From assembly GCA_947064765.1 (NCBI GenBank), contig CAMSWH010000003.1, positions 9,990 through 73,989 on the forward strand: DNA of 64,000 bases, read 5' to 3'. Origin of the DNA: an uncultured Clostridium sp. (GTDB taxonomy: Bacteria > Bacillota > Clostridia > TANB77 > CAG-508). Each line of letters opens with the position of its first letter. Position 1 is the stretch's first letter. The notes beneath the pieces are model-generated. The model was given only the letters and a program-made list of their open reading frames with translations. It made no database searches and had not been told where the DNA came from. Shown here in pieces: positions 3,840 to 14,780 of the stretch. A program made the position numbers and the translations under genes.

Positions 3840-3949
3840 AATATAGAAATAGGTATACTAGAAATTAAGCAAATATAAATTATTCATGTATTTGTTTATC
3901 TAGTTTTTGTAAGCTTAAATTTTGAAAGGAGTAAAATTTAAAACAAAGG

Positions 3950-4140
3950 TTAGCGCCAGAACTATTTATATTTTTACATATAATTGTAAAAAATATTTTT
4001 TAGAATAAAAGTTTTATATAAAAATAGTTGACGAGGTTTAGAGTTATCGAAATATTCGGCGGATGCTCTAATGGTACAATTACTACCACAGGTTAAATTA
4101 AAAAATAGTAGCAATACTATAACAGACTTTTAACCAGTAA
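3950..4140 (+). ncRNA. glmS ribozyme (GlcN6P-dependent self-cleaving leader)
   Basis: AGCGCCAGAACT at 3952-3963, GACGAGG at 4030-4036, TCGAAATATTCGGCGGATGC at 4047-4066, P4-like GGTTAAA...TTTAACC. Lies directly upstream of glmS. Long AT-rich P1 insertion at 3964-4029. Confidence 0.85.
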
Positions 4141-4234
4141 TTTTGCTTACACCCTATTTATAAACTAGATTTTATGGCAATTTTATTGTCTTTAAAAATT
4201 ATACTCTAGTTTATTTAAGAAAGGTGGTTTTTTT

Positions 4235-6070
4235 ATGTGTGGAATAGTTGGTTATATAGGAGAAAAACAAGCAAAACCAATATTAATTAATGGTCTTTTA
4301 AGACTAGAATATAGAGGTTATGACTCTGCTGGAATCGCTACTATCGAAAATAGTGGTATTAAAAATATAAAAAATAAAGGTCGTGTTAACGAACTTGAAA
4401 AAATTGATGATATAAATTCTTTAACAGGAACAATAGGAATTGGTCATACTAGATGGGCTACTCATGGTAAACCTTCTAGTGTCAATTCACACCCTCATAT
4501 GGATAATTCAAATAAATTTGCTGTTGTTCATAATGGTATAATCGAAAATTATTCAGGTTTAAGGGACTTCTTAAAATCTCGAAAATATACTTTTTTATCA
4601 GAAACAGATACTGAAGTTATACCAAATCTAATTCATTTTAATTATGAAAGCTCTAAAGAAAAAGGTGAAAAACGTCTTTTATCAGCTGTTATAGATACTT
4701 GTAAAATGTTAAAAGGTAGCTATGCTATTGAAGTTTTATGCTCTGATTTCCCAGACAATATGATTGTAGTTAGAAAAGATAGCCCTTTAGTTATTGGAAA
4801 AGGAAATAATGAAAGCTATATCAGCTCTGATATTCCTGCAATTCTATCTTTTACAAAAGACTTTTATCTTTTAAATGATAATGAATTTGCTTTTATTAGT
4901 AGAAATAATATTGATTTCTATGATGCAAATTCAAATCCCATAAATAAAGAAATTAAAAATATTACTTGGGATGCTGGAGCCGCTGAAAAAGACGGTTATC
5001 CTGACTTTATGTTAAAAGAAATCAATGAACAACCAAAATCAATAAGAGAAACTATTGGTTCTAGACTTCCTGAAAACTCTAATTCTGTTATTCCAGAATT
5101 AGATATAGATAAAAAATTCTTACAAACAATTAATAAAGTTTTTATAATTGCGTGTGGTACAGCTATGCATGCAGGTCTTGCTGGAAAAAATATTTTAGAA
5201 AGTTTATGTGAAATCCCAACAGAAGTTGAAGCTGCATCAGAATTTAGATATAGAAATCCAATACTAAATAAAAATACTCTTTGTATATTTATTAGTCAAT
5301 CTGGTGAAACAGCTGATACTATTGCTGCTTTAAAGCTTGCAAAATTGAAAGGTTCAAAAACTATTGCTATATCAAATGTAGTTGGATCTTCAATTTCAAG
5401 AGAAGCAGATTATACAATTTATACTCATGCTGGTCCTGAAATAGCTGTTGCTTCTACAAAAGCTTATACTGCTCAAATTGTTTTACTTGCAATTCTTGCA
5501 ATCAATTTTGCAGAAAAATTAGAAATAAATAAGGAAAAACTTGAAGAACTAAAAAAAGATATACTTCTTCTACCTTCTAATCTTGAAGAAGTATTAAAAA
5601 ATACAGAAAAAATAAAATCCTTTGCTCAAAATATCTATAAAGAAAAAGATGTATTTTTTATTGGTAGAGGTATTGATTATACTGTTGCAATGGAAGGATC
5701 TTTAAAACTTAAAGAAATTTCATATATACATTCAGAAGCTTATCCTTCTGGTGAATTAAAACATGGGCCTATTGCATTAATAGAAAATGGTGTAACTGTT
5801 ATTTCAGTTTTAACTAATAGACTTTTAGTAGAAAAATCAATTAGTAATATTCAAGAAGTCGTAACTAGAGGAGCAAAAACTTTTATAGTTACTAACCAAG
5901 AATTAAATCATGATTTTGATGAAATAATAAAAATTCCAAAAACAAATATCCTTATCTCTCCTATTCTTTCTGTAGTACCTCTTCAAATTTTAGCATACTA
6001 CATTTCTAAAGAAAAAGGATTAGATGTTGATAAACCTAGAAATCTTGCAAAGTCAGTAACTGTAGAATAA
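4235..6070 (+). CDS. glmS: glutamine--fructose-6-phosphate aminotransferase (isomerizing)
   Basis: 611 aa. MCGIVGY N-terminal nucleophile, two SIS domains, C-terminal KPRNLAKSVTVE. Confidence 0.97.
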   Translation: MCGIVGYIGEKQAKPILINGLLRLEYRGYDSAGIATIENSGIKNIKNKGRVNELEKIDDINSLTGTIGIGHTRWATHGKPSSVNSHPHMDNSNKFAVVHNGIIENYSGLRDFLKSRKYTFLSETDTEVIPNLIHFNYESSKEKGEKRLLSAVIDTCKMLKGSYAIEVLCSDFPDNMIVVRKDSPLVIGKGNNESYISSDIPAILSFTKDFYLLNDNEFAFISRNNIDFYDANSNPINKEIKNITWDAGAAEKDGYPDFMLKEINEQPKSIRETIGSRLPENSNSVIPELDIDKKFLQTINKVFIIACGTAMHAGLAGKNILESLCEIPTEVEAASEFRYRNPILNKNTLCIFISQSGETADTIAALKLAKLKGSKTIAISNVVGSSISREADYTIYTHAGPEIAVASTKAYTAQIVLLAILAINFAEKLEINKEKLEELKKDILLLPSNLEEVLKNTEKIKSFAQNIYKEKDVFFIGRGIDYTVAMEGSLKLKEISYIHSEAYPSGELKHGPIALIENGVTVISVLTNRLLVEKSISNIQEVVTRGAKTFIVTNQELNHDFDEIIKIPKTNILISPILSVVPLQILAYYISKEKGLDVDKPRNLAKSVTVE

Positions 6071-6849: not shown

Positions 6850-7440
6850 TTATTCATTATTTGGAATAAAATTTTCAATTTCTTTCCATACCGCTTCTGT
6901 ATAGATTTTCCTTTCAGCAGAAAATGGCAATATTGTACTATATGATATTCCTAAAGTTTCTTTTATTCTCTCTACTTCACCAGATACCTTTGTTATTGCT
7001 ATTTTATCAGCTTTATTTGTAACAACTATAAATGGTAAATTACTTCTTAAAATATAATCATACATTAACATATCATCTTCTGTCGGTTTATGCCTAATAT
7101 CTAGTAAAAATACAATTAAAGAAATATTTTTTCCTTCTTCTAAATATTCTTCAATATACTTTCCTGATATTACTTTTTCTGTTTTAGACATTTTACTAAA
7201 ACCATATCCTGGTAAATCTACAAAATAAAATTTTTCATCTATATTATAAAAATTTATTTGTCTAGTTTTTCCAGGAACATTACTTGTTCTTGCTAAACTT
7301 TTTCTATTAATCATTGTATTTACAAAAGAAGACTTCCCTACATTTGATTTTCCCACTAATACTATTTCTGGTAAATCTCCTTTTGGATATTGTTTTTTGC
7401 TTACTGCTGATATTTCAAATTTAGGATTTTTTACTATCAT
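6850..7440 (-). CDS. engB: ribosome biogenesis GTP-binding protein YsxC/EngB
   Basis: G1 GKSNVGKSS, G3 DLPGYG, G4 NKADK. I place the start at ATG 7440 (GGAG 7 nt upstream) rather than the track start 7455. Confidence 0.9.
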   Translation of the reverse strand: MIVKNPKFEISAVSKKQYPKGDLPEIVLVGKSNVGKSSFVNTMINRKSLARTSNVPGKTRQINFYNIDEKFYFVDLPGYGFSKMSKTEKVISGKYIEEYLEEGKNISLIVFLLDIRHKPTEDDMLMYDYILRSNLPFIVVTNKADKIAITKVSGEVERIKETLGISYSTILPFSAERKIYTEAVWKEIENFIPNNE

Positions 7441-7474
7441 AATTTCTCCATTCATTATTGTTTTTATATAATAA

Positions 7475-8758
7475 TTATTTTTTTTCTATTTTTTCTGCTC
7501 CTCCCATATAGCCTTGTAAAACTTTTGGAATACGTATGCTTCCATCTTCTTGATAATTATTTTCTATAACAGCTATTAATCCTCTTGGACTTGCTACTAC
7601 AGTATTATTTAATGTAGCTACTAAATAATTTCCTTTTTCTCCTTTAGCTCTAATTCCTAATCTTCTTGCTTGTGCATCTCCTAATGTAGAACAGCTACCT
7701 ACTTCAAAGTATTTCTTTTGACGTGGACTCCAAGCTTCAACATCACAAGATTTAACTTTCAAATCTGCTAAATCTCCACTGCAACATTCTAATGTTCTTA
7801 CTGGTACATCTAGACTTCTGAAAAATTCTACTGTGTAACTCCACATTTTATTGTACCAATCCATTTGTTCTTCTGGTTTGCAAAGTACAATCATTTCTTG
7901 TTTTTCAAATTGATGAACTCTATATAAGCCTCTTTCTTCTAATCCATGAGAACCTACCTCTTTTCTAAAACATGGAGAATATCCTGTTATAGCTATAGGT
8001 AATTCTTCTTCTTTCACTATTTGACCTTTAAATTTTCCTATCATAGAATGTTCACTTGTACCTATTAAGTAAAGATCTTCACCTTCAATTTTATACATCA
8101 TAGCTTCTAATTCTTCAAAACTCATAACACCATTTACAACATCACTTCTTATCATAAAAGGTGGTATACAATAAGTGAAGCCTTTATTTATCATAAAATC
8201 TCTAGCATATGCAATCATTGCTTCATGTAATCTTGCTACATCTCCTAGTAAATAATAAAATCCATTTCCACTTGTTCTTCCCGCACTTTCTTTATCTAAA
8301 CCACATAAACTTTCAATTATATCTGCATGATATGGTATTTCATAATCTGGAACAACTGGATCTCCAAATTTTTCATTTTCTACATTTTCACTATCATCTT
8401 TTCCTATAGGAACTGATTTATCCATAATATTAGGAATTTTCATCATTCTACTTTTTATTTCTTCTTTTAAGACATCTTCTCTTCCTTCATTTGCTGCTAA
8501 TTTATCATTGATCTCTTGTACTTCTTGTTTTTTGCTTTCTGCTTCTTCTTTTTTTCCTTGTCCCATAAGATTTCCAATTTCTTTACTTATAGAATTTCTT
8601 TTCATACGAAGATCATCACACATTAATGTTAACTCTCTGCTTTCTTTATCTAATTCTAGCACTTCATCAACTAAATTTAATTTATGATCTTGAAATTTTT
8701 TTCTAATATTTTCTTTTACCATTTCTGGATTCTCTCTTAATATTTTTATATCTATCAT
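7475..8758 (-). CDS. serS: serine--tRNA ligase
   Basis: N-terminal coiled-coil arm MIDIKILRENPE..., class II motifs (FRKEVGSHG, GSCSTLGDAQARRL). Start moved to ATG 8758 (GGGGGA RBS). The track start 8785 adds 9 residues. Confidence 0.95.
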   Translation of the reverse strand: MIDIKILRENPEMVKENIRKKFQDHKLNLVDEVLELDKESRELTLMCDDLRMKRNSISKEIGNLMGQGKKEEAESKKQEVQEINDKLAANEGREDVLKEEIKSRMMKIPNIMDKSVPIGKDDSENVENEKFGDPVVPDYEIPYHADIIESLCGLDKESAGRTSGNGFYYLLGDVARLHEAMIAYARDFMINKGFTYCIPPFMIRSDVVNGVMSFEELEAMMYKIEGEDLYLIGTSEHSMIGKFKGQIVKEEELPIAITGYSPCFRKEVGSHGLEERGLYRVHQFEKQEMIVLCKPEEQMDWYNKMWSYTVEFFRSLDVPVRTLECCSGDLADLKVKSCDVEAWSPRQKKYFEVGSCSTLGDAQARRLGIRAKGEKGNYLVATLNNTVVASPRGLIAVIENNYQEDGSIRIPKVLQGYMGGAEKIEKK

Positions 8759-8787
8759 ATTATATCCCCCAATTCTAAAAATCAATT

Positions 8788-9021
8788 TTATTCTTCTATT
8801 AATTCAAATCTATGTTTTTGACCTGTTGTGTTTCCTTCTTTATTACTTACATCATCTTCTTCTAAAAACATTACTTCTGGTCTTGCCCACATATCTCCTG
8901 TTCCTAGATGAGTATAAATAACTAAATTTTCTAAAGTTTCGGAGTGTTTAGCTATTCCTAAAACCTCAACAATATGACCTTTAAAATGTCTATACTTTTT
9001 ACCTACTTCAACTTTTTCCAT
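8788..9021 (-). CDS. DUF1653 domain protein (copy a)
   Basis: 77 aa. YRHFKG...SETLE..VIY..L......W.RP..MF.E.......TGQKHRFE, the DUF1653 signature. Confidence 0.75.
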   Translation of the reverse strand: MEKVEVGKKYRHFKGHIVEVLGIAKHSETLENLVIYTHLGTGDMWARPEVMFLEEDDVSNKEGNTTGQKHRFELIEE

Positions 9022-9032
9022 AACTATTCCTC

Positions 9033-9284
9033 CTATTTTAAATTATAATCTTTTAAATTATCTATACGCTCAAATCTATATTTTTGGCCTGTTACATTAT
9101 CTGGTCTTTCTGGTATTTCTTCTAAAAACATTTTTTCAGATCTCACACAAATTATTTGCGAATTATCTAAATGTTTATATACAACCATTCTTTCTCTTGT
9201 TTCCGAATCTAACCCTACACACATTACATAATAAAATGGTCCTTTAAAATGACGATATACTTCTCCTTCTTTTACTTCATTCAT
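9033..9284 (-). CDS. DUF1653 domain protein (copy b)
   Basis: 83 aa. YRHFKGPFYYV...SETRERMVVYKHL...MFLEE...VTGQKYRFE. Confidence 0.75.
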   Translation of the reverse strand: MNEVKEGEVYRHFKGPFYYVMCVGLDSETRERMVVYKHLDNSQIICVRSEKMFLEEIPERPDNVTGQKYRFERIDNLKDYNLK

Positions 9285-9332
9285 AATTTTTTCCTCCTTT
9301 ATCTTATAATAAACTTATATTAAATTCTTTAT

Positions 9333-10133
9333 TTAATCCTTTTTTATATAATCCTTAGTTAAATCTTCTACTACTTCAAATCTATGTTTTTGTCCTGTTA
9401 CATTGTCTTTTCTATTTTCATCAATTTCTTCAAAAAACATTTTTGCAGGCCTTGTCCAAAGCATTGAGTCTTCTCTTTCATACAGTGGTCTATATACTAT
9501 TATATCTTCCTTAGTTTCTGAATCCATACTTATATTTTCTATAAAATAATAATTTCCTTTAAAATGTCTAACTACTTTTCCTATAAAATCAACATAGATT
9601 TTTGATCCTACTGTTCCATCTTCATTTTGATACATTGGAGTTTTCTCATTACTATATATTAAATCATCTGTAATTCCATCTGTTAATTCTTCAAATACTA
9701 TCTGACCTATTCTCATTCCTGGTTTCATTTTATAAGTATTTGGAGATAAATTGTACATTGCAATATTTAAAATTCCTTCATATCCTGCATTTATATGTTG
9801 AAAATTTATTACTATTCCTAATCTACTTAAAGATGTTCTTGGTCTAATATGTGCAACCATATTACTCGTAAGTTTTACTTTTTCATTAAGTATAACAAAA
9901 ATTACTTCATTAGGTTTAAAATTATAGCTCTCTTTTATTTCAATTTTTTCATACATATTTTCTATTTTTTCAGGCTCTGATAAATCAATTGCTTTAAATG
10001 TTTTCTTAATTTTTAAAATCTCACTACTCATTGATATATCACAAGATCCTGAACTAATATATTCTTTATTACAATTTTCTAATATATTTTCTTCATCAAT
10101 TAATTTTCTTATATCATTTCCATTAAATATCAT
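9333..10133 (-). CDS. dCTP deaminase (Dcd)-like domain fused to a C-terminal DUF1653 domain
   Basis: The N-terminal ~190 aa align by eye to Dcd (DIRKLIDEENI; RPRTSLSRLG; KPGMRIGQIVFEEL; YQNEDGTVGSKI). The C-terminal VRHFKGNYYFI...SETKEDIIVYRPL...MFFEE...VTGQKHRFE is DUF1653. Start set at ATG 10133, 5 nt after GGAGG. The track start 10145 is a TTG inside the RBS. Confidence 0.75.
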   Translation of the reverse strand: MIFNGNDIRKLIDEENILENCNKEYISSGSCDISMSSEILKIKKTFKAIDLSEPEKIENMYEKIEIKESYNFKPNEVIFVILNEKVKLTSNMVAHIRPRTSLSRLGIVINFQHINAGYEGILNIAMYNLSPNTYKMKPGMRIGQIVFEELTDGITDDLIYSNEKTPMYQNEDGTVGSKIYVDFIGKVVRHFKGNYYFIENISMDSETKEDIIVYRPLYEREDSMLWTRPAKMFFEEIDENRKDNVTGQKHRFEVVEDLTKDYIKKD

Positions 10134-10249
10134 ATTTTCCTCCAAACATATTATTTTTATATTTTCATCTTATGTTTAAATATAATATTATTAAAAATCT
10201 TATTATTCAAATAAAACTTTTTAGTAAAAATCATTTTACTTTTCCATAA

Positions 10250-10495
10250 ATACAAAAAAATCCTTATGCAAAATTGCATAAGGGCGAATATTTCGCGGTA
10301 CCACCTTTTTTTAGATTAAAATAAATTAATCTTCTCATTATATTGCTATAACCTGCAACAACTCGGTCTAGTTTACTAGAAACATTTTAAGAGTAGATTT
10401 CATAAATACTTTTATCTATTTACACCTGCCATAGACTCTCTTTAAAAAGTTTATTTATTACTTAGTTCTTAATCAATCGTCTTAAATATTATGTA
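10250..10495 (-). promoter_or_regulatory. T-box riboswitch leader, candidate Ser (UCU) specifier
   Basis: Minus-strand RNA shows, in order: an AGUA S-turn; the AAAGAGAGUC AG bay; the distal loop GGCAGGUGUAA; the specifier region GAAAUCUAC; stem III GAUUAA/UUAAUC; the T-box AAAAAGGUGGUACCGCG (plus 10294-10310); and the terminator CCUUAUGCAAUUUUGCAUAAGG plus U7 (plus 10254-10283). Confidence 0.85.
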
Positions 10496-10499
10496 ATAC

Positions 10500-10527
10500 A
10501 TTATAACATATTTTTATAATTTGTAAA
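10500..10527 (-). promoter_or_regulatory. promoter of the T-box leader
   Basis: Minus strand TTTACA (10522-10527), 16 nt ending in TGT, TATAAT (10500-10505). Confidence 0.5.
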
Positions 10528-10571
10528 TACTTGATTTATAAATAGATAAAATTTATATATAATTTTCAATT

Positions 10572-10604
10572 ATAAAAAATGCTAAACGGGCCTTTTGCAG
10601 CCCG
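10572..10604 (-). terminator. terminator after the 67-aa orphan
   Basis: Minus strand CGGGCUGCAAAAGGCCCG hairpin (plus 10587-10604) followed by UUUAGCAUUUUUU. Confidence 0.55.
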
Positions 10605-10646
10605 CCTCGCACTTTAAAAACTCCCCTATAATTCCGCTGTTTGCAC

Positions 10647-10850
10647 CTATTCGTAAGCTCTTACCTCAATGCCTGACTTTCCATACATAAGTCTCCCATA
10701 GGACAATTTGAGCATCGGCGGTAATACAAGTTCCTCTGCCGCTGTCTCTGACCATATTACAGAGGTACTTCTGCTTGAAAGACCGATATTTGCAAACGGA
10801 TTTAAGAGTTGCAATTTGTGGGTTACTGTGTTAAATTCTTGCTGATTCAT
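10647..10850 (-). CDS. 67-aa hypothetical protein in a GC-rich islet
   Basis: ORF-track ORF with AAAGGAG 8-9 nt upstream of the ATG, plus its own extended -10 (TGTTATAAT) and terminator. No recognisable motif. Confidence 0.4.
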   Translation of the reverse strand: MNQQEFNTVTHKLQLLNPFANIGLSSRSTSVIWSETAAEELVLPPMLKLSYGRLMYGKSGIEVRAYE

Positions 10851-11084: not shown

Positions 11085-11372
11085 TCACTTTTTCTTGAAA
11101 GATTTGAGTTTGGGATTTGTAATTCTTACTTCTATCTCATACTCTGTACTTCCTTGGCTTTGAAATCTTAACTTTTTATACTTTCTTTTAAGTTTTTCAA
11201 AAGCTTCTTCAAACCAATCTTCTTGGAATGCAATAAAAAGATCATCAATTTCTTTTTCTGTTATCTTTTTACTTACATCTATCACCGTTAGCCGGCAATA
11301 TCCTACTTCATAAGAGCCCTGATTCCACATTTCCCTAATCCCTTGCCTATTGTACGTATTTGCTTCTGCCAT
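11085..11372 (-). CDS. 95-aa hypothetical protein, paralog of the 108-aa ORF at 12536-12862
   Basis: RBS GGAGAAAAGGG, extended -10 TGCTATAAT upstream. Shares GYCRLTVIDVS / WFEEAFEKL / EVRIT blocks with the 108-aa ORF. Confidence 0.5.
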   Translation of the reverse strand: MAEANTYNRQGIREMWNQGSYEVGYCRLTVIDVSKKITEKEIDDLFIAFQEDWFEEAFEKLKRKYKKLRFQSQGSTEYEIEVRITNPKLKSFKKK

Positions 11373-11529
11373 ACTGCCCTTTTCTCCAATTCTAATAGTT
11401 TTTTCAATAAATTATTATAGCATAAAATAAAAAAAAGTAAATAATTTAATAAAGTTTTTTCCTTATTAATCATCTACTTTTATATTCTACATATTCCTTA
11501 TAAATAAAGCTTTCCAAAGATTCTAGTTA

Positions 11530-12282
11530 TTACATCTCAGGTCCATCACTATAGCTTTTCTTATCACTTGTTTCGCCAAAATATGGTATACTATAAATCT
11601 TCATAATTTCATCTACAGATTTTGCATATAAAATTTCACCAAAATCCGAATATTTTTGTACATCTAAAACATTTGCAGTTGAATATTCATCAGAATTTCT
11701 AAATCCACTTTTTCTTCTCATTTCATTTCTGTTTTTCCATATTTCTAATAAATCTCTTCTATATTTTTCTATATTAGGAGATGTTTGCATATCTGAAAAA
11801 CATGGCATTATTGCTACAATTCCATTATTATTAATCATTTTTGTAAAATCATTAAAAAATCTTTCATCCGCATCTAAAGTATATTGTACTACTAATTCCA
11901 TTGCTTCTCCTTGCCAGTCTTCACCTTTTTGCATTAAACTACTTAAATACTTCAAATTATTTTGATATGTAGTATAATAACTTTCTTCTTGTATACTATC
12001 TTTTATATTTCCTGTTGCTGGATCTACACTACCTCTTCTTGTAAGTGGAAAATCTGGATCATTAGGCTTATCTGTAAATCTTGCATAATATTTACAAGCT
12101 TCTATAAAAGCTCTATCTTCTGGAATAATAGAATCCCATGATACAAAAATTCTATCTGTATCATCTTCTGGGTATCTTAAAACTTGTACCAAAAACCTAC
12201 TATCTCTAATTTTGTAGTCATCATGACCATTATTATGTGTTCCTGGCATTTCATCACAAAGTACAAGTAATTTTCCATCCAT
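11530..12282 (-). CDS. 250-aa conserved-looking hypothetical protein, translationally coupled to DUF951
   Basis: Host-like composition. AAAGGAG RBS overlaps the DUF951 stop, with a 17-nt gap. No motif recognised. Confidence 0.7.
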   Translation of the reverse strand: MDGKLLVLCDEMPGTHNNGHDDYKIRDSRFLVQVLRYPEDDTDRIFVSWDSIIPEDRAFIEACKYYARFTDKPNDPDFPLTRRGSVDPATGNIKDSIQEESYYTTYQNNLKYLSSLMQKGEDWQGEAMELVVQYTLDADERFFNDFTKMINNNGIVAIMPCFSDMQTSPNIEKYRRDLLEIWKNRNEMRRKSGFRNSDEYSTANVLDVQKYSDFGEILYAKSVDEIMKIYSIPYFGETSDKKSYSDGPEM

Positions 12283-12299
12283 ATTATTACTATTCTCCT

Positions 12300-12470
12300 T
12301 TATTTTTTTATTATTATTTTTAATGCTTTTTCACGTGGAAGAACAACTACATGCTGGCATCCACAACATTTAAGTTTAAAATCCACACCTACTCTTGTTA
12401 TTTCCCATTCTTTACTTCCACATGGATGCTGTTTTTTAGTTTTAACTATATCCCCAATATTATATTCCAC
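12300..12470 (-). CDS. DUF951 family small protein (56 aa, GTG start)
   Basis: Not in the ORF track. The minus-strand frame from GTG 12470 (GAGG 6 nt upstream) reads VEYNIGDIVKTKKQHPCGSKEWEITRVGVDFKLKCCGCQHVVVLPREKALKIIIKK. The GD.V..KK.HPCGS..W...R.G.D...KC..C pattern is characteristic of DUF951. Confidence 0.7.
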   Translation of the reverse strand: MEYNIGDIVKTKKQHPCGSKEWEITRVGVDFKLKCCGCQHVVVLPREKALKIIIKK

Positions 12471-12535
12471 ATTCTACCTCTATATATAAATTTATTAAAT
12501 TTCATATTTTTTCGCTGTTTCCAGCGAAGCCACAT

Positions 12536-12862
12536 CTAGTGGCCTCTAAAAAAAACAGCAATTAATCTTCTAATGCTCCACCGCTTCGTAATTCTTACCT
12601 CTGCAGTTAGATCATTTCCTTGTTCTGAAATTTTGACAAATGTGATATATCTCTTACTGCTAAATTTCTCTTTAACTCTTGTTTTAAGCCTATAATTTTT
12701 AAAAGCCTCAAAGAGTTCTTTAAGAGTTTCTTCTCGATAATCTGTATCTCTCAGCACTCCAGAACTATCTACTACGTTAAGTTCGTAGTATCTCTCCTGC
12801 AAGTAAACCTCCTTTTGTGAGCTTGAAATCTCATAAATTTTTGGTTTTAACAAGTTATTCAT
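12536..12862 (-). CDS. 108-aa hypothetical protein, paralog of the 95-aa ORF
   Basis: GGAGG RBS. Promoter TTGAGG-16-TATAAT (minus). Blocks RYYELNVVDSS / ELFEAFKNY / EVRIT. The C-terminal tail (IAVFFRGH) runs into hairpins, so the end is uncertain. Confidence 0.5.
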   Translation of the reverse strand: MNNLLKPKIYEISSSQKEVYLQERYYELNVVDSSGVLRDTDYREETLKELFEAFKNYRLKTRVKEKFSSKRYITFVKISEQGNDLTAEVRITKRWSIRRLIAVFFRGH

Positions 12863-13151: not shown

Positions 13152-14780
13152 TTAAATTCTATTTTTTATTTCATCTATTCCTAAAACTTGCATTATTTCA
13201 TAAAGATCTGGTGTATTACTTCTTCCAGTTATTTTTACTCTTATAACTGTACTTATATCACCTACATAACCTTTATATGAATCTGGATTTGCTTTATATT
13301 CCTTTACTTCTCTTGCATATCCAAATTCTTCTGCTAAATCTTTCATTTTATCAAACCATGTTTGTTTATCATCTGATTCATTATAATATTTTTCAAAATA
13401 TGTTTTTAATATTTTTTCTATTTCATCTTTATCAGTTATTTTTTGATATTCATATTCTGAATTTGTTTTAAATTTTTCAGGATACATGTAATAAATAATA
13501 TTTTTTACATCAGACCATTTTGCTATATCTTTACGAGGTTTTACATTTCCTCTTTCAATTCCTAAAACTTTTAAAGAATATTCTTTATTTGCTAGCATCT
13601 CTGCAAGTTCTTCATCATATTCTTTTGCCCATTCTAAAGCTTCATTGTAGACTTTCTCTGCTGAATATCTTGAAATAACATTTTTTGATACATCAAGCAT
13701 TTTTACCATATCAAAAAGTGCCCCACTTACACTCATTTTCTTTAAATCAAATGGAAATTCATACATTGATTTATCTGGATTTTGTTTTCTCCAAATTTCA
13801 AAATTTGAATTTGCAATATTCATTAAATATTCTAAAACTGAATCTTTAGGAATTCCCTCTTCTTTATAGTAGCTTACAGCTGATTCTGGATCTTTTCTTT
13901 TACTTAATTTACGTTTGCCTTCTCCATCCATTTTCATCATTGGAGCTATATGAGCATATTTAGGAGCTTTAAATCCCATTACATAGAAAAGTTGTAAATG
14001 TAGTGGAACTGAAGCAAGCCATTCATCTGCTCTTATTACCATATTTGTTCCCATTAAATGATCATCAACTAAATGTGCAAAATGATATGTTGGTAATCCA
14101 TCAGATTTTATTATTACTATATCTTGATCATTTTCGGGAAAATCAACACTTCCTTTAATTGCATCTTTATGTTTTATTTTTTTATCTGGATTTCCTGGTG
14201 ACTTAAATCTCACTATATATGAATCACCATTTTTTATTTTTTCAATAGCCATATCTACTGGCATATTTCTACATTTTGTCCATTTCCCATAATATCCTGT
14301 TCTTTCCTTTGCTTTTTCTTGATCCCCTCTAATTTTTTCTAAATCTTCTGAACTGCAAAAACAAGGATACGCATTTCCTTCTTCAAGCAATTTTTTTGCA
14401 TAAGATTGATATATATCTTTTCTTAAAGATTGTTTATATGGTCCATATTCACCATAATCCACATTATTTTCATCTATATATTCATCAGGTGATAAATCAA
14501 AATCTTTCAAAGCATCTAAGATTTGTTTTGTTCCACCCTCTACTTCTCTTTTTTGGTCTGTATCTTCAATTCTTACGAAAAATACTCCATTATCTTTTGC
14601 CATAAGTTTTGCAATTAAACTTTGATAAATTCCACCAATATGAACAAATCCTGTTGGACTTGGTGCAAATCTTGTTACAATAGCTCCCTCTGGTAAATTT
14701 CTTGATTTATATTTTTCTTCATAATAAGTGTAATCCTTTACATCTGGAAATATTAAATTTGCTAAATCTTTATTATCCAT
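13152..14780 (-). CDS. gltX: glutamate--tRNA ligase (long clostridial form)
   Basis: 542 aa. Class I HIGH (PSPTGFVHIGG) and KMSKS-like (KLSKRK) motifs, GluRS-type catalytic core. Confidence 0.9.
   Translation of the reverse strand: MDNKDLANLIFPDVKDYTYYEEKYKSRNLPEGAIVTRFAPSPTGFVHIGGIYQSLIAKLMAKDNGVFFVRIEDTDQKREVEGGTKQILDALKDFDLSPDEYIDENNVDYGEYGPYKQSLRKDIYQSYAKKLLEEGNAYPCFCSSEDLEKIRGDQEKAKERTGYYGKWTKCRNMPVDMAIEKIKNGDSYIVRFKSPGNPDKKIKHKDAIKGSVDFPENDQDIVIIKSDGLPTYHFAHLVDDHLMGTNMVIRADEWLASVPLHLQLFYVMGFKAPKYAHIAPMMKMDGEGKRKLSKRKDPESAVSYYKEEGIPKDSVLEYLMNIANSNFEIWRKQNPDKSMYEFPFDLKKMSVSGALFDMVKMLDVSKNVISRYSAEKVYNEALEWAKEYDEELAEMLANKEYSLKVLGIERGNVKPRKDIAKWSDVKNIIYYMYPEKFKTNSEYEYQKITDKDEIEKILKTYFEKYYNESDDKQTWFDKMKDLAEEFGYAREVKEYKANPDSYKGYVGDISTVIRVKITGRSNTPDLYEIMQVLGIDEIKNRI

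Follow-up and report, generated by a model that had tools for sequence, protein, structure and literature searches.

We analyzed a 64,000-nucleotide (nt) stretch of DNA from an uncultured Clostridium sp. (GenBank assembly GCA_947064765.1, contig CAMSWH010000003.1, positions 9,990 to 73,989 of the forward strand), called the window below, in which a riboswitch leader on the minus strand precedes three genes with DUF1653 domains and serS, the gene for seryl-tRNA synthetase (SerRS). Judged from its sequence and predicted folding, the leader belongs to the class-I T-box riboswitches, which attenuate transcription, and is specific for tRNA-Ser; as a regulatory RNA it is an ordinary, textbook example. 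We propose, with a probability of about three in four, that this tRNA-Ser-sensing attenuator drives one polycistronic message carrying, in order, a gene in which a DCD-like domain is fused to DUF1653 (DCD-like::DUF1653), two stand-alone DUF1653 genes, serS and possibly engB.

The T-box leader and the tRNA it would sense

The covariance model for T-boxes (RF00230) matched the minus strand at 10277-10485 over its full length (model positions 1-219 of 219), with 93.0 bits and an E-value of 4.7e-19 in cmscan. The gathering score given for RF00230 in the Rfam table is 93, the same as the score of the match, and it is the E-value that makes the match safe. Gathering mode might miss weaker T-boxes, and the related loci described below were scanned in E-value mode and with an nhmmer profile. 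About 15 nt upstream of the match start lies a sigma-70-type promoter at 10500-10527 on the minus strand (TTTACA-16 nt-(TG)TATAAT), which agrees with the consensus at 11 of 12 positions and has an extended -10 TG. This near-consensus site scored highest of all promoter-like sites in the region 7300-10800.

The predicted leader RNA (10277-10485) comprises Stem I, a reduced Stem II, Stem IIA/B, Stem III and the antiterminator; Stem II is shorter than the Rfam consensus, with a 13-position deletion in the Rfam alignment. Within the T-box sequence GGUGGUACCGCG (10294-10305, minus strand), the bases UGGU (10303-10300) form the bulge that would pair with the NCCA end of the tRNA. The T-box sequence is followed by an intrinsic terminator at 10252-10283 on the same strand, made of the 9-bp hairpin CCUUAUGCAAUUUUGCAUAAGG (10283-10262) and a U-run. 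In the minimum free energy (MFE) fold, the 3' part of the leader forms this terminator hairpin, at -25.6 kcal/mol and with a z-score of -4.0 against shuffled sequences. CCUU, the 5' arm of the terminator hairpin, is in the Rfam alignment the 3' strand of the antiterminator; because both structures use it, they are mutually exclusive. Stem I carries the AG bulge AGAGA and the distal loop GGCAGGUGUAAA (GGUGNRA-like), both aligned to the RF00230 model. Together these two elements form the platform on which a T-box holds the tRNA elbow, and their positions are invariant or near-invariant in 20 related leaders. Across the same 20 leaders, RNAalifold found compensatory changes in 15 of the 27 predicted pairs, touching the Stem I distal helix, Stem IIA/B, the antiterminator and the terminator (4 of 8 pairs in the last). 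The sequence and structural parts of a T-box are present: a specifier loop with its GAA (S-turn) motif, codon and purine, a UGGN bulge, and an antiterminator that competes with an intrinsic terminator.

The MFE fold also delimits the specifier loop. The helix UUAAGA/UCUUAA closes it and leaves GAAAUCUAC on its 3' side, which holds three candidate triplets: AUC (10398-10396), UCU (10397-10395) and CUA (10396-10394). We compared 23 leaders (22 aligned and that of locus L068 read directly) and assign the specifier to UCU at 10395-10397 of the minus strand, a Ser codon in the context GAA-A-UCU-A-C. The triplet is UCU in 22 of the 23 leaders and the synonymous UCC in the remaining one (L058). The layout GAA-A-UCU-A-C-helix occurs in 15 leaders, and seven (L014, L016-L019, L041 and L068) have GAA-UCU-A-helix, the canonical T-box geometry; because UCU-A adjoins the helix directly in these seven, only UCU fits as the codon there. 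In L005 the sequence reads UCU-C.

The acceptor end points to the same tRNA. The variable base of the bulge is U in 20 leaders and C in three (L003, L043 and L068), giving UGGU or UGGC. G73 is the discriminator base of bacterial tRNA-Ser, while tRNA-Ile and tRNA-Leu carry A73. A U or C at the bulge base fits G73 through G-U or G-C pairing and hence fits tRNA-Ser. The window contains no tRNA gene; the single tRNA-Ser gene among 60 fetched related loci, in a metagenome-assembled genome (MAG) of the Bacilli, has G73. The assignment of the leader to Ser is thus well supported by sequence comparison. A first-pass annotation, made from the letters of the window, had proposed the T-box with its promoter, Stem I AG bay, distal loop and terminator at these positions, with UCU as the specifier for tRNA-Ser; the RF00230 search and the promoter and terminator scan bear out the former, and the Stem I fold and the codon variation, UCU or UCC in 23 of 23 leaders, the latter.

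Genes of the proposed operon

The first gene behind the leader, at 9333-10133 on the minus strand like all genes of the operon, encodes the 266-residue fusion protein (DCD domain PF22769, E = 4e-24; DUF1653 PF07866, E = 6e-17). It is followed by stand-alone DUF1653 genes of 83 codons at 9033-9284 (PF07866, E = 1.5e-17) and 77 codons at 8788-9021 (E = 1.5e-18), and then by serS at 7475-8758, whose 427-residue product scores 400.4 bits with TIGR00414 (cutoff 301.65) and has the Seryl_tRNA_N (N-terminal coiled-coil) and tRNA-synt_2b (class II core) domains. The gaps between the four genes are 48, 11 and 29 nt in operon order, each with a ribosome-binding site (RBS). That of the 83-residue DUF1653 protein, AAGGAGG, lies in the 48-nt gap; serS has GGGGGA, and the 29-nt gap before it contains this RBS only. 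The gene order and gaps agree with those that had been read from the open reading frames (ORFs).

The message appears uninterrupted. On the minus strand of 7300-10800, the only terminator-like sites were the T-box terminator and, at 10607-10584, that of the upstream gene; terminator scans found none between 10262 and 5900. The first-pass annotation had reported no terminator between the T-box and serS, and none appeared in the scan, nor any convincing promoter. From this we infer, as the best account of the sequence, that the three upstream genes would be induced together with serS. We set aside the idea of a Ser-codon-rich leader peptide: the product of 9033-9284 has Ser at 3 of its 83 residues.

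The engB/ysxC GTPase gene (6850-7455, minus strand; TIGR03598, 203.7 bits) begins 19 nt past serS and may be carried on the operon message. Its membership is uncertain: in related loci, the spacing between the serS and engB matches, measured end to start, ranges from about 5 to about 2000 nt.

Conservation of the layout in related genomes

We compared the window with 62 related loci from species-representative genomes and with more from metagenome contigs. A T-box followed by DUF1653 genes and serS occurs in 21 of the species-representative genomes, in L068/L069 (two MAG contigs, one locus) and in the window. The layout is thus found in at least 23 species-level genomes; conservation in related Clostridia, which had been put forward as a check, holds, and the arrangement is not unique to this strain. 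In L001-L012, L014, L016-L019 and L035, the T-box is followed by DCD::DUF1653, by none to two more DUF1653 genes and by serS; in L041, L043, L058 and L068/L069, by a stand-alone DUF1653 gene and serS. In 35 tabulated loci the last DUF1653 gene mostly lies 11-80 nt from serS with no terminator between them, L051 being the exception. Loci with a T-box fall on both deep branches of a neighbor-joining tree of SerRS, and for this reason the layout probably dates back to the ancestor of this clade, a group of uncultured gut Clostridia of low GC content.

Twelve further loci have DUF1653 and serS and no T-box. Their short intergenic region holds a plain strong promoter directly before DUF1653, and two of them (L036 and L037) also carry the DCD part. 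No hidden T-box was found in these leaderless loci, either by Rfam scans in E-value mode (six loci) or by nhmmer with a clade-specific leader profile (all loci). On the SerRS tree they form three subclades, which implies at least two to three independent losses of the leader with the operon kept. The converse arrangement is seen in 22 loci that have DCD::DUF1653 and lack serS, mostly from Bacilli-like, RF39-like and Erysipelotrichaceae MAGs: motif and nhmmer scans, the only ones applied to them, found no T-box beside the fusion gene, and no neighbor of the fusion gene recurs among the 22. As far as gene arrangement can tell, then, the T-box is tied to serS and not to DUF1653.

This distribution suits another explanation, which we regard as a serious contender at somewhat under even odds. 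The T-box would serve serS only; the DUF1653 genes, whether joined to the DCD part or not, would have lodged between the two in an ancestor and persisted by synteny, and their co-regulation would have no functional meaning for DUF1653. In its favor, a T-box is seen only where serS lies downstream, and the fusion gene, away from serS, has no conserved neighbors. In addition, the whole serS-engB-DUF951 neighborhood is syntenic, stand-alone DUF1653 genes occur elsewhere in recG-gpr, era-recO and Ham1 contexts, and serS T-boxes are near-universal in Firmicutes (PMC2494555). The durability of the association is harder to reconcile with it. The order, orientation and short gaps of DUF1653 and serS have outlasted the repeated losses of the T-box, and their adjacency has outlasted gain or loss of the DCD part and changes in DUF1653 domain copy number between 1 and 3, across loci whose SerRS identity falls to about 70%. 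Moreover, the promoter of the T-box-less genomes stands before DUF1653 and not before serS; engB, by contrast, drifts over the wide range of distances from serS given above. The T-box wiring had been read as a functional clue to DUF1653. The conserved operon upholds part of that idea, whereas the T-box itself tracks serS; the useful clue is the conserved DUF1653-serS operon and not membership in a T-box regulon as such.

One locus has an insertion in the operon. L009 contains an extra 133-residue ORF (7071-7472) between the last DUF1653 gene and serS, and L012 has a gap of similar size in a region that is only partly covered. The L009 ORF resembles nucleoside 2-deoxyribosyltransferase at a sub-threshold level (PF05014: 20.3 bits where the cutoff is 28.8, E = 6e-4) and, if this weak match is sound, would be another nucleotide-related gene within the T-box operon.

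The DCD-like domain

In the fusion protein, residues 1 to about 185 make up a complete Dcd fold and residues 187-253 the DUF1653 domain. The protein scores above the NCBIfam equivalog cutoff for dCTP deaminase (TIGR02274, 105.7 bits against 92.8). Its AlphaFold2 model (pLDDT 90.4) matches E. coli Dcd (1xs1) with an E-value of 1.9e-14 and a TM-score of 0.83, and it superposes on E. coli Dcd and on the bifunctional DCD-DUT of Mycobacterium tuberculosis (Mtb) over about 190 residues with TM-scores of 0.83-0.88.

The catalytic residues tell a different story from the fold and profile. In dCTP deaminase, a catalytic Glu (Glu138 in E. coli, Glu145 in M. jannaschii) activates the deaminating water, and motif III of dUTPases supplies a catalytic Asp (Asp90 in E. 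coli Dut, Asp83 in Mtb Dut). When the fusion is aligned by profile with Mtb DCD-DUT and E. coli Dcd E138A, Ala125 falls at the Glu138 position and Asn115 at the motif-III Asp, so that neither the catalytic Glu of Dcd nor the motif-III Asp of dUTPases is found. The same holds across the family. Among 56 family sequences, the Glu138 column contains Ala in 21, Leu in 13, Thr in 11, Ser in 6, Glu in 2, Pro in 2 and Met in 1, and the Asp column Asn in 54, Gln in 1 and His in 1. What the fusion family keeps are nucleotide-contacting elements: the Ser/Arg motif, the Gln-His pair, the motif-IV Gln and the C-terminal lid motif, with Ser101, Arg104, His113 and Gln144 conserved. The D83N variant of Mtb Dut binds its substrate normally and has a catalytic efficiency of 0.0002 of the wild type (PMC5519681); the structures 1xs4 and 2v9x are Dcd variants in which Glu138 is changed to Ala or Asp. 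From these residues, the DCD-like domain is most likely a pyrimidine (d)NTP-binding pseudoenzyme and not a dCTP deaminase: with the catalytic Glu absent and the catalytic Asp replaced by Asn, it should not be taken for an active enzyme of this kind. The earlier description of the protein as Dcd-like and of nucleotide-deaminase fold stands: the fold is complete, while the residues speak against deaminase activity.

We find it improbable that the domain is nonetheless an active dCTP deaminase or dUTPase, through which the supply of serine and one-carbon units would be tied by the operon to dUMP and dTMP synthesis. In its favor, serine donates one-carbon units for thymidylate synthesis, and the protein passes the TIGR02274 cutoff, is named dCTP deaminase in the sources, has the entire modeled Dcd fold with its C-terminal lid, and keeps Ser101, Arg104, His113 and Gln144. 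Set against this, the Glu138 position is occupied by Ala, Leu, Thr, Ser, Pro or Met in 54 of 56 family members, the equivalent of Dut Asp90 is Asn in 54 of 56, and changes at both of these positions have served to inactivate the enzymes (1xs4, 2v9x; D83N, PMC5519681).

Public sources call the family members that we collected (P0001-P0120) "dCTP deaminase," a name that arises because the sequences exceed the NCBIfam equivalog cutoff; for the DCD::DUF1653 family it is probably a systematic mis-annotation. A role in anti-phage defense by dCTP deaminase was considered and set aside: PADLOC gave no match for the fusion or for either DUF1653 protein, and the PHROGs matches were confined to a generic dCTP deaminase family and to unknown ones.

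An unfused version of the two modules was seen on an unverified phage contig from human feces (MT835477.1; L075, 4953-6270), where a Dcd-like gene, a 143-residue ORF and a DUF1653 gene stand in a row. The Dcd-like gene reads QHCNSTYSG...LQVGLFN; here too Asn replaces the Asp, and the position of the Glu is taken by Gly. The cassette lies amid ORFs that, judging their translations by eye, resemble helix-turn-helix regulators and a transposase. The arrangement suggests that Dcd-like and DUF1653 are a mobile functional pair that is also paired when unfused. In a single lineage (L065, 6001-8092), a PolyA_pol-family gene, of the CCA-adding or poly(A) polymerase type, lies about 240 nt after DCD::DUF1653 and is a second tRNA-related neighbor of the fusion.

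The DUF1653 domain

The three DUF1653 domains of the window score 62.2, 64.2 and 67.3 bits against a PF07866 cutoff of 23.5. They are 44-50% identical to one another (50% between the 83-residue copy and the fusion part), a level of divergence that makes the duplications old. The invariant residues of the family are His, Lys, Glu, Arg and Gln. The AlphaFold2 model of the 77-residue protein (pLDDT 95.5) is a small beta-barrel. Its sole significant Foldseek match in the PDB is 3be3 (E = 8.7e-4, TM-score 0.71), a DUF1653 protein of Bordetella bronchiseptica deposited by structural genomics without an assigned function; matches to Tudor, SH3 and KOW-like folds have E-values above 0.1 and are insufficient for assigning a function. 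On the strength of the model, we describe DUF1653 as a small barrel of the Tudor/SH3 type. Folds of this kind are typical of adaptors that bind proteins or nucleic acids.

The wider family gives few leads. A profile search retrieved 10,322 cluster representatives at E <= 0.001. Guilt by fusion did not yield a function: the Pfam partners among 71 longer DUF1653 proteins are scattered singletons (HAD_SAK_2, AAA_28, OGT_N and PG_binding). Guilt by association outside the clade failed likewise, as the 22 serS-less loci share no partner of DCD::DUF1653. In the open-access literature, we found DUF1653 in one paper only, as an uninformative mention in a proteomics list.

Several other DUF1653 neighborhoods were recorded. 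A stand-alone gene stands immediately upstream of Ham1/RdgB, an NTP pyrophosphatase gene (L071, 4001-4882); another lies between era and recO and overlaps recO by 8 nt (L070, 2994-4958); and in several loci (L044, L045, L047, L048 and L073) a DUF1653 gene stands between recG and the germination protease gene gpr. These contexts are nucleotide- or DNA-repair-flavored, without a single consistent partner. A motif (D/N)L-x-KDY follows the DUF1653 domain at the C-terminus of the fusion, of the 83-residue copy and of the recG-gpr-type (L044-type) homologues, and is not present in the 77-residue copy; it could be an interaction tail.

Other features of the window

Upstream of the T-box operon, the region 11085-12862 (minus strand) has ORFs of 95, 250 and 108 residues without a Pfam match, and Pfam places a DUF951 gene at 12300-12470. 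A Glu/Gln-type class I tRNA synthetase gene lies at 13152-14780, with no T-box in front of it in the Rfam scan. On the plus strand, an ordinary glmS ribozyme (3941-4145; RF00234, 68.5 bits, E = 1.2e-13) is found immediately upstream of the glmS ORF (4235-6070).

Discussion

Based on these comparisons, we propose the following scheme for the operon. RNA polymerase would begin at the promoter at 10527-10500, and while charged tRNA-Ser predominates, the hairpin at 10283-10262 would end transcription. When uncharged tRNA-Ser accumulates, the UCU specifier (10397-10395) would bind its anticodon, and the UGGU bulge (10303-10300) its free NCCA end; this pairing would stabilize the antiterminator and allow read-through into the polycistronic message. 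The T-box would then be the ancestral serS leader of the clade, and the DUF1653 genes would be conserved upstream cistrons of the serS operon. Co-transcription of all four genes and their induction by serine limitation would follow from this arrangement.

Several observations weigh against our interpretation. DUF1653 occurs elsewhere in unrelated contexts and with scattered fusion partners. With respect to the pseudoenzyme, Q112, H113 and Y118 are invariant in the family, and the loss of the canonical residues is compatible with a different chemistry. With respect to the message, AT-rich DNA provides many weak promoter-like matches, so an internal promoter is possible; among the related loci, L051 has a terminator and a promoter, and L057 a promoter-like site, between DUF1653 and serS. 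If serS had its own promoter, the T-box would effectively control the three upstream genes only, and weak promoter-like matches at 9255-9228 and 9064-9035 (minus strand, 9 of 12 each) might be taken as candidates. We consider this improbable for the window: matches of this quality are at chance level (21 promoter-like matches found against 22.6 expected in shuffles), the 29-nt gap between DUF1653 and serS contains only the RBS, the terminator scan shows nothing ahead of serS that would stop the upstream message, and a Ser-specifier T-box is found in these loci only with serS downstream.

The last such observation concerns the specifier. AUC, one register upstream of UCU, is present in 23 of 23 leaders, and AUC, UCU and CUA all lie within GAAAUCUAC, so that the leader might in principle sense tRNA-Ile or tRNA-Leu. 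We reject both as very improbable, given the geometry of the loop, the way the codon varies and the base that pairs with the discriminator: in the seven leaders with GAA-UCU-A-helix, AUC overlaps the conserved GAA and only UCU precedes the conserved purine beside the helix; the CUA frame drifts to CUC (L005) and to CCA, a Pro codon (L058), while UCU drifts solely to synonymous UCC; the UGGC bulge of three leaders would mismatch A73 of tRNA-Ile and tRNA-Leu and pairs with G73; and the conserved aminoacyl-tRNA synthetase gene downstream is serS.

As a tRNA-Ser-responsive leader, the element closely resembles the serS T-boxes of Firmicutes (RF00230; the tRNA-directed transcription antitermination of Grundy and Henkin) in its Stem I specifier loop, AG bulge and distal loop, UGGN bulge, competing antiterminator and terminator, Ser specifier and the presence of serS in the operon. 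It differs in that serS is the fourth cistron, after three DUF1653-containing genes, and in its shortened Stem II. Of 34 Firmicutes surveyed, at least 29 have conserved T-box control of serS (PMC2494555). The first-pass annotation had called the genes in between unexpected cargo for a T-box. The cargo is indeed unusual, but for 8% of T-boxes the genes behind them are unknown or unrelated, and aminoacyl-tRNA synthetase genes such as cysS and asnS are found as the second gene of T-box operons (Wels et al. 2008, PMC2494555). These operons and the B. subtilis rtpA (anti-TRAP)-ycbK operon are precedents for extra or regulatory genes under a T-box. In the precedents, however, the extra genes are linked to the amino acid (cysE to cysteine, anti-TRAP to tryptophan). 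We know of no link of DUF1653 or of the DCD-like domain to serine.

Compared with Dcd and the bifunctional DCD-DUT enzymes (1xs1, 2qxx, 1ogh), the DCD-like domain of the window has the same fold, Ser/Arg motif, Gln-His pair, motif-IV Gln and lid motif; it differs in its absent or variable catalytic Glu, its Asp-to-Asn change and the DUF1653 domain fused to its C-terminus. The window DUF1653 model, for its part, corresponds to the one structure available, 3be3. The trimeric dUTPases of staphylococcal phages (3zf0), which derepress Stl, illustrate, as an analogy only, how a protein of the dUTPase fold can serve as a nucleotide-gated interaction module, and a catalytically dead DCD domain could work like such a signaling phage dUTPase. 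The phage proteins differ in being active enzymes with a motif VI insert, and the window system is without a known partner. The unfused pair on the phage-like contig L075 is the reason for supposing that the two modules act together wherever they are found. On this basis, DUF1653 might be a dedicated partner of SerRS or tRNA-Ser in this clade, gated by the dead Dcd module as a sensor of pyrimidine (d)NTPs; we put this forward as an unlikely but specific possibility. If it were true, a T-box-induced complex of pseudoenzyme and adaptor would link the charging of tRNA-Ser, or the serine (one-carbon) status of the cell, to its pool of pyrimidine deoxynucleotides.

The finding alone reveals no new mechanism: the cargo is unusual and conserved, and it does not amount to a new principle. 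The comparison does show how the cargo of a T-box can be assessed, as the switch follows the aminoacyl-tRNA synthetase gene and not the unknown genes. A family of more than 200 proteins is annotated "dCTP deaminase" without the catalytic residues, which matters for the metabolic reconstruction of uncultured organisms. For DUF1653 itself, there is now a reproducible genomic association: across a whole clade of gut Clostridia it is an upstream cistron of serS, in most cases behind a Ser T-box. The association offers a testable condition (serine limitation) and a candidate partner (SerRS), a modest clue to the function of DUF1653.

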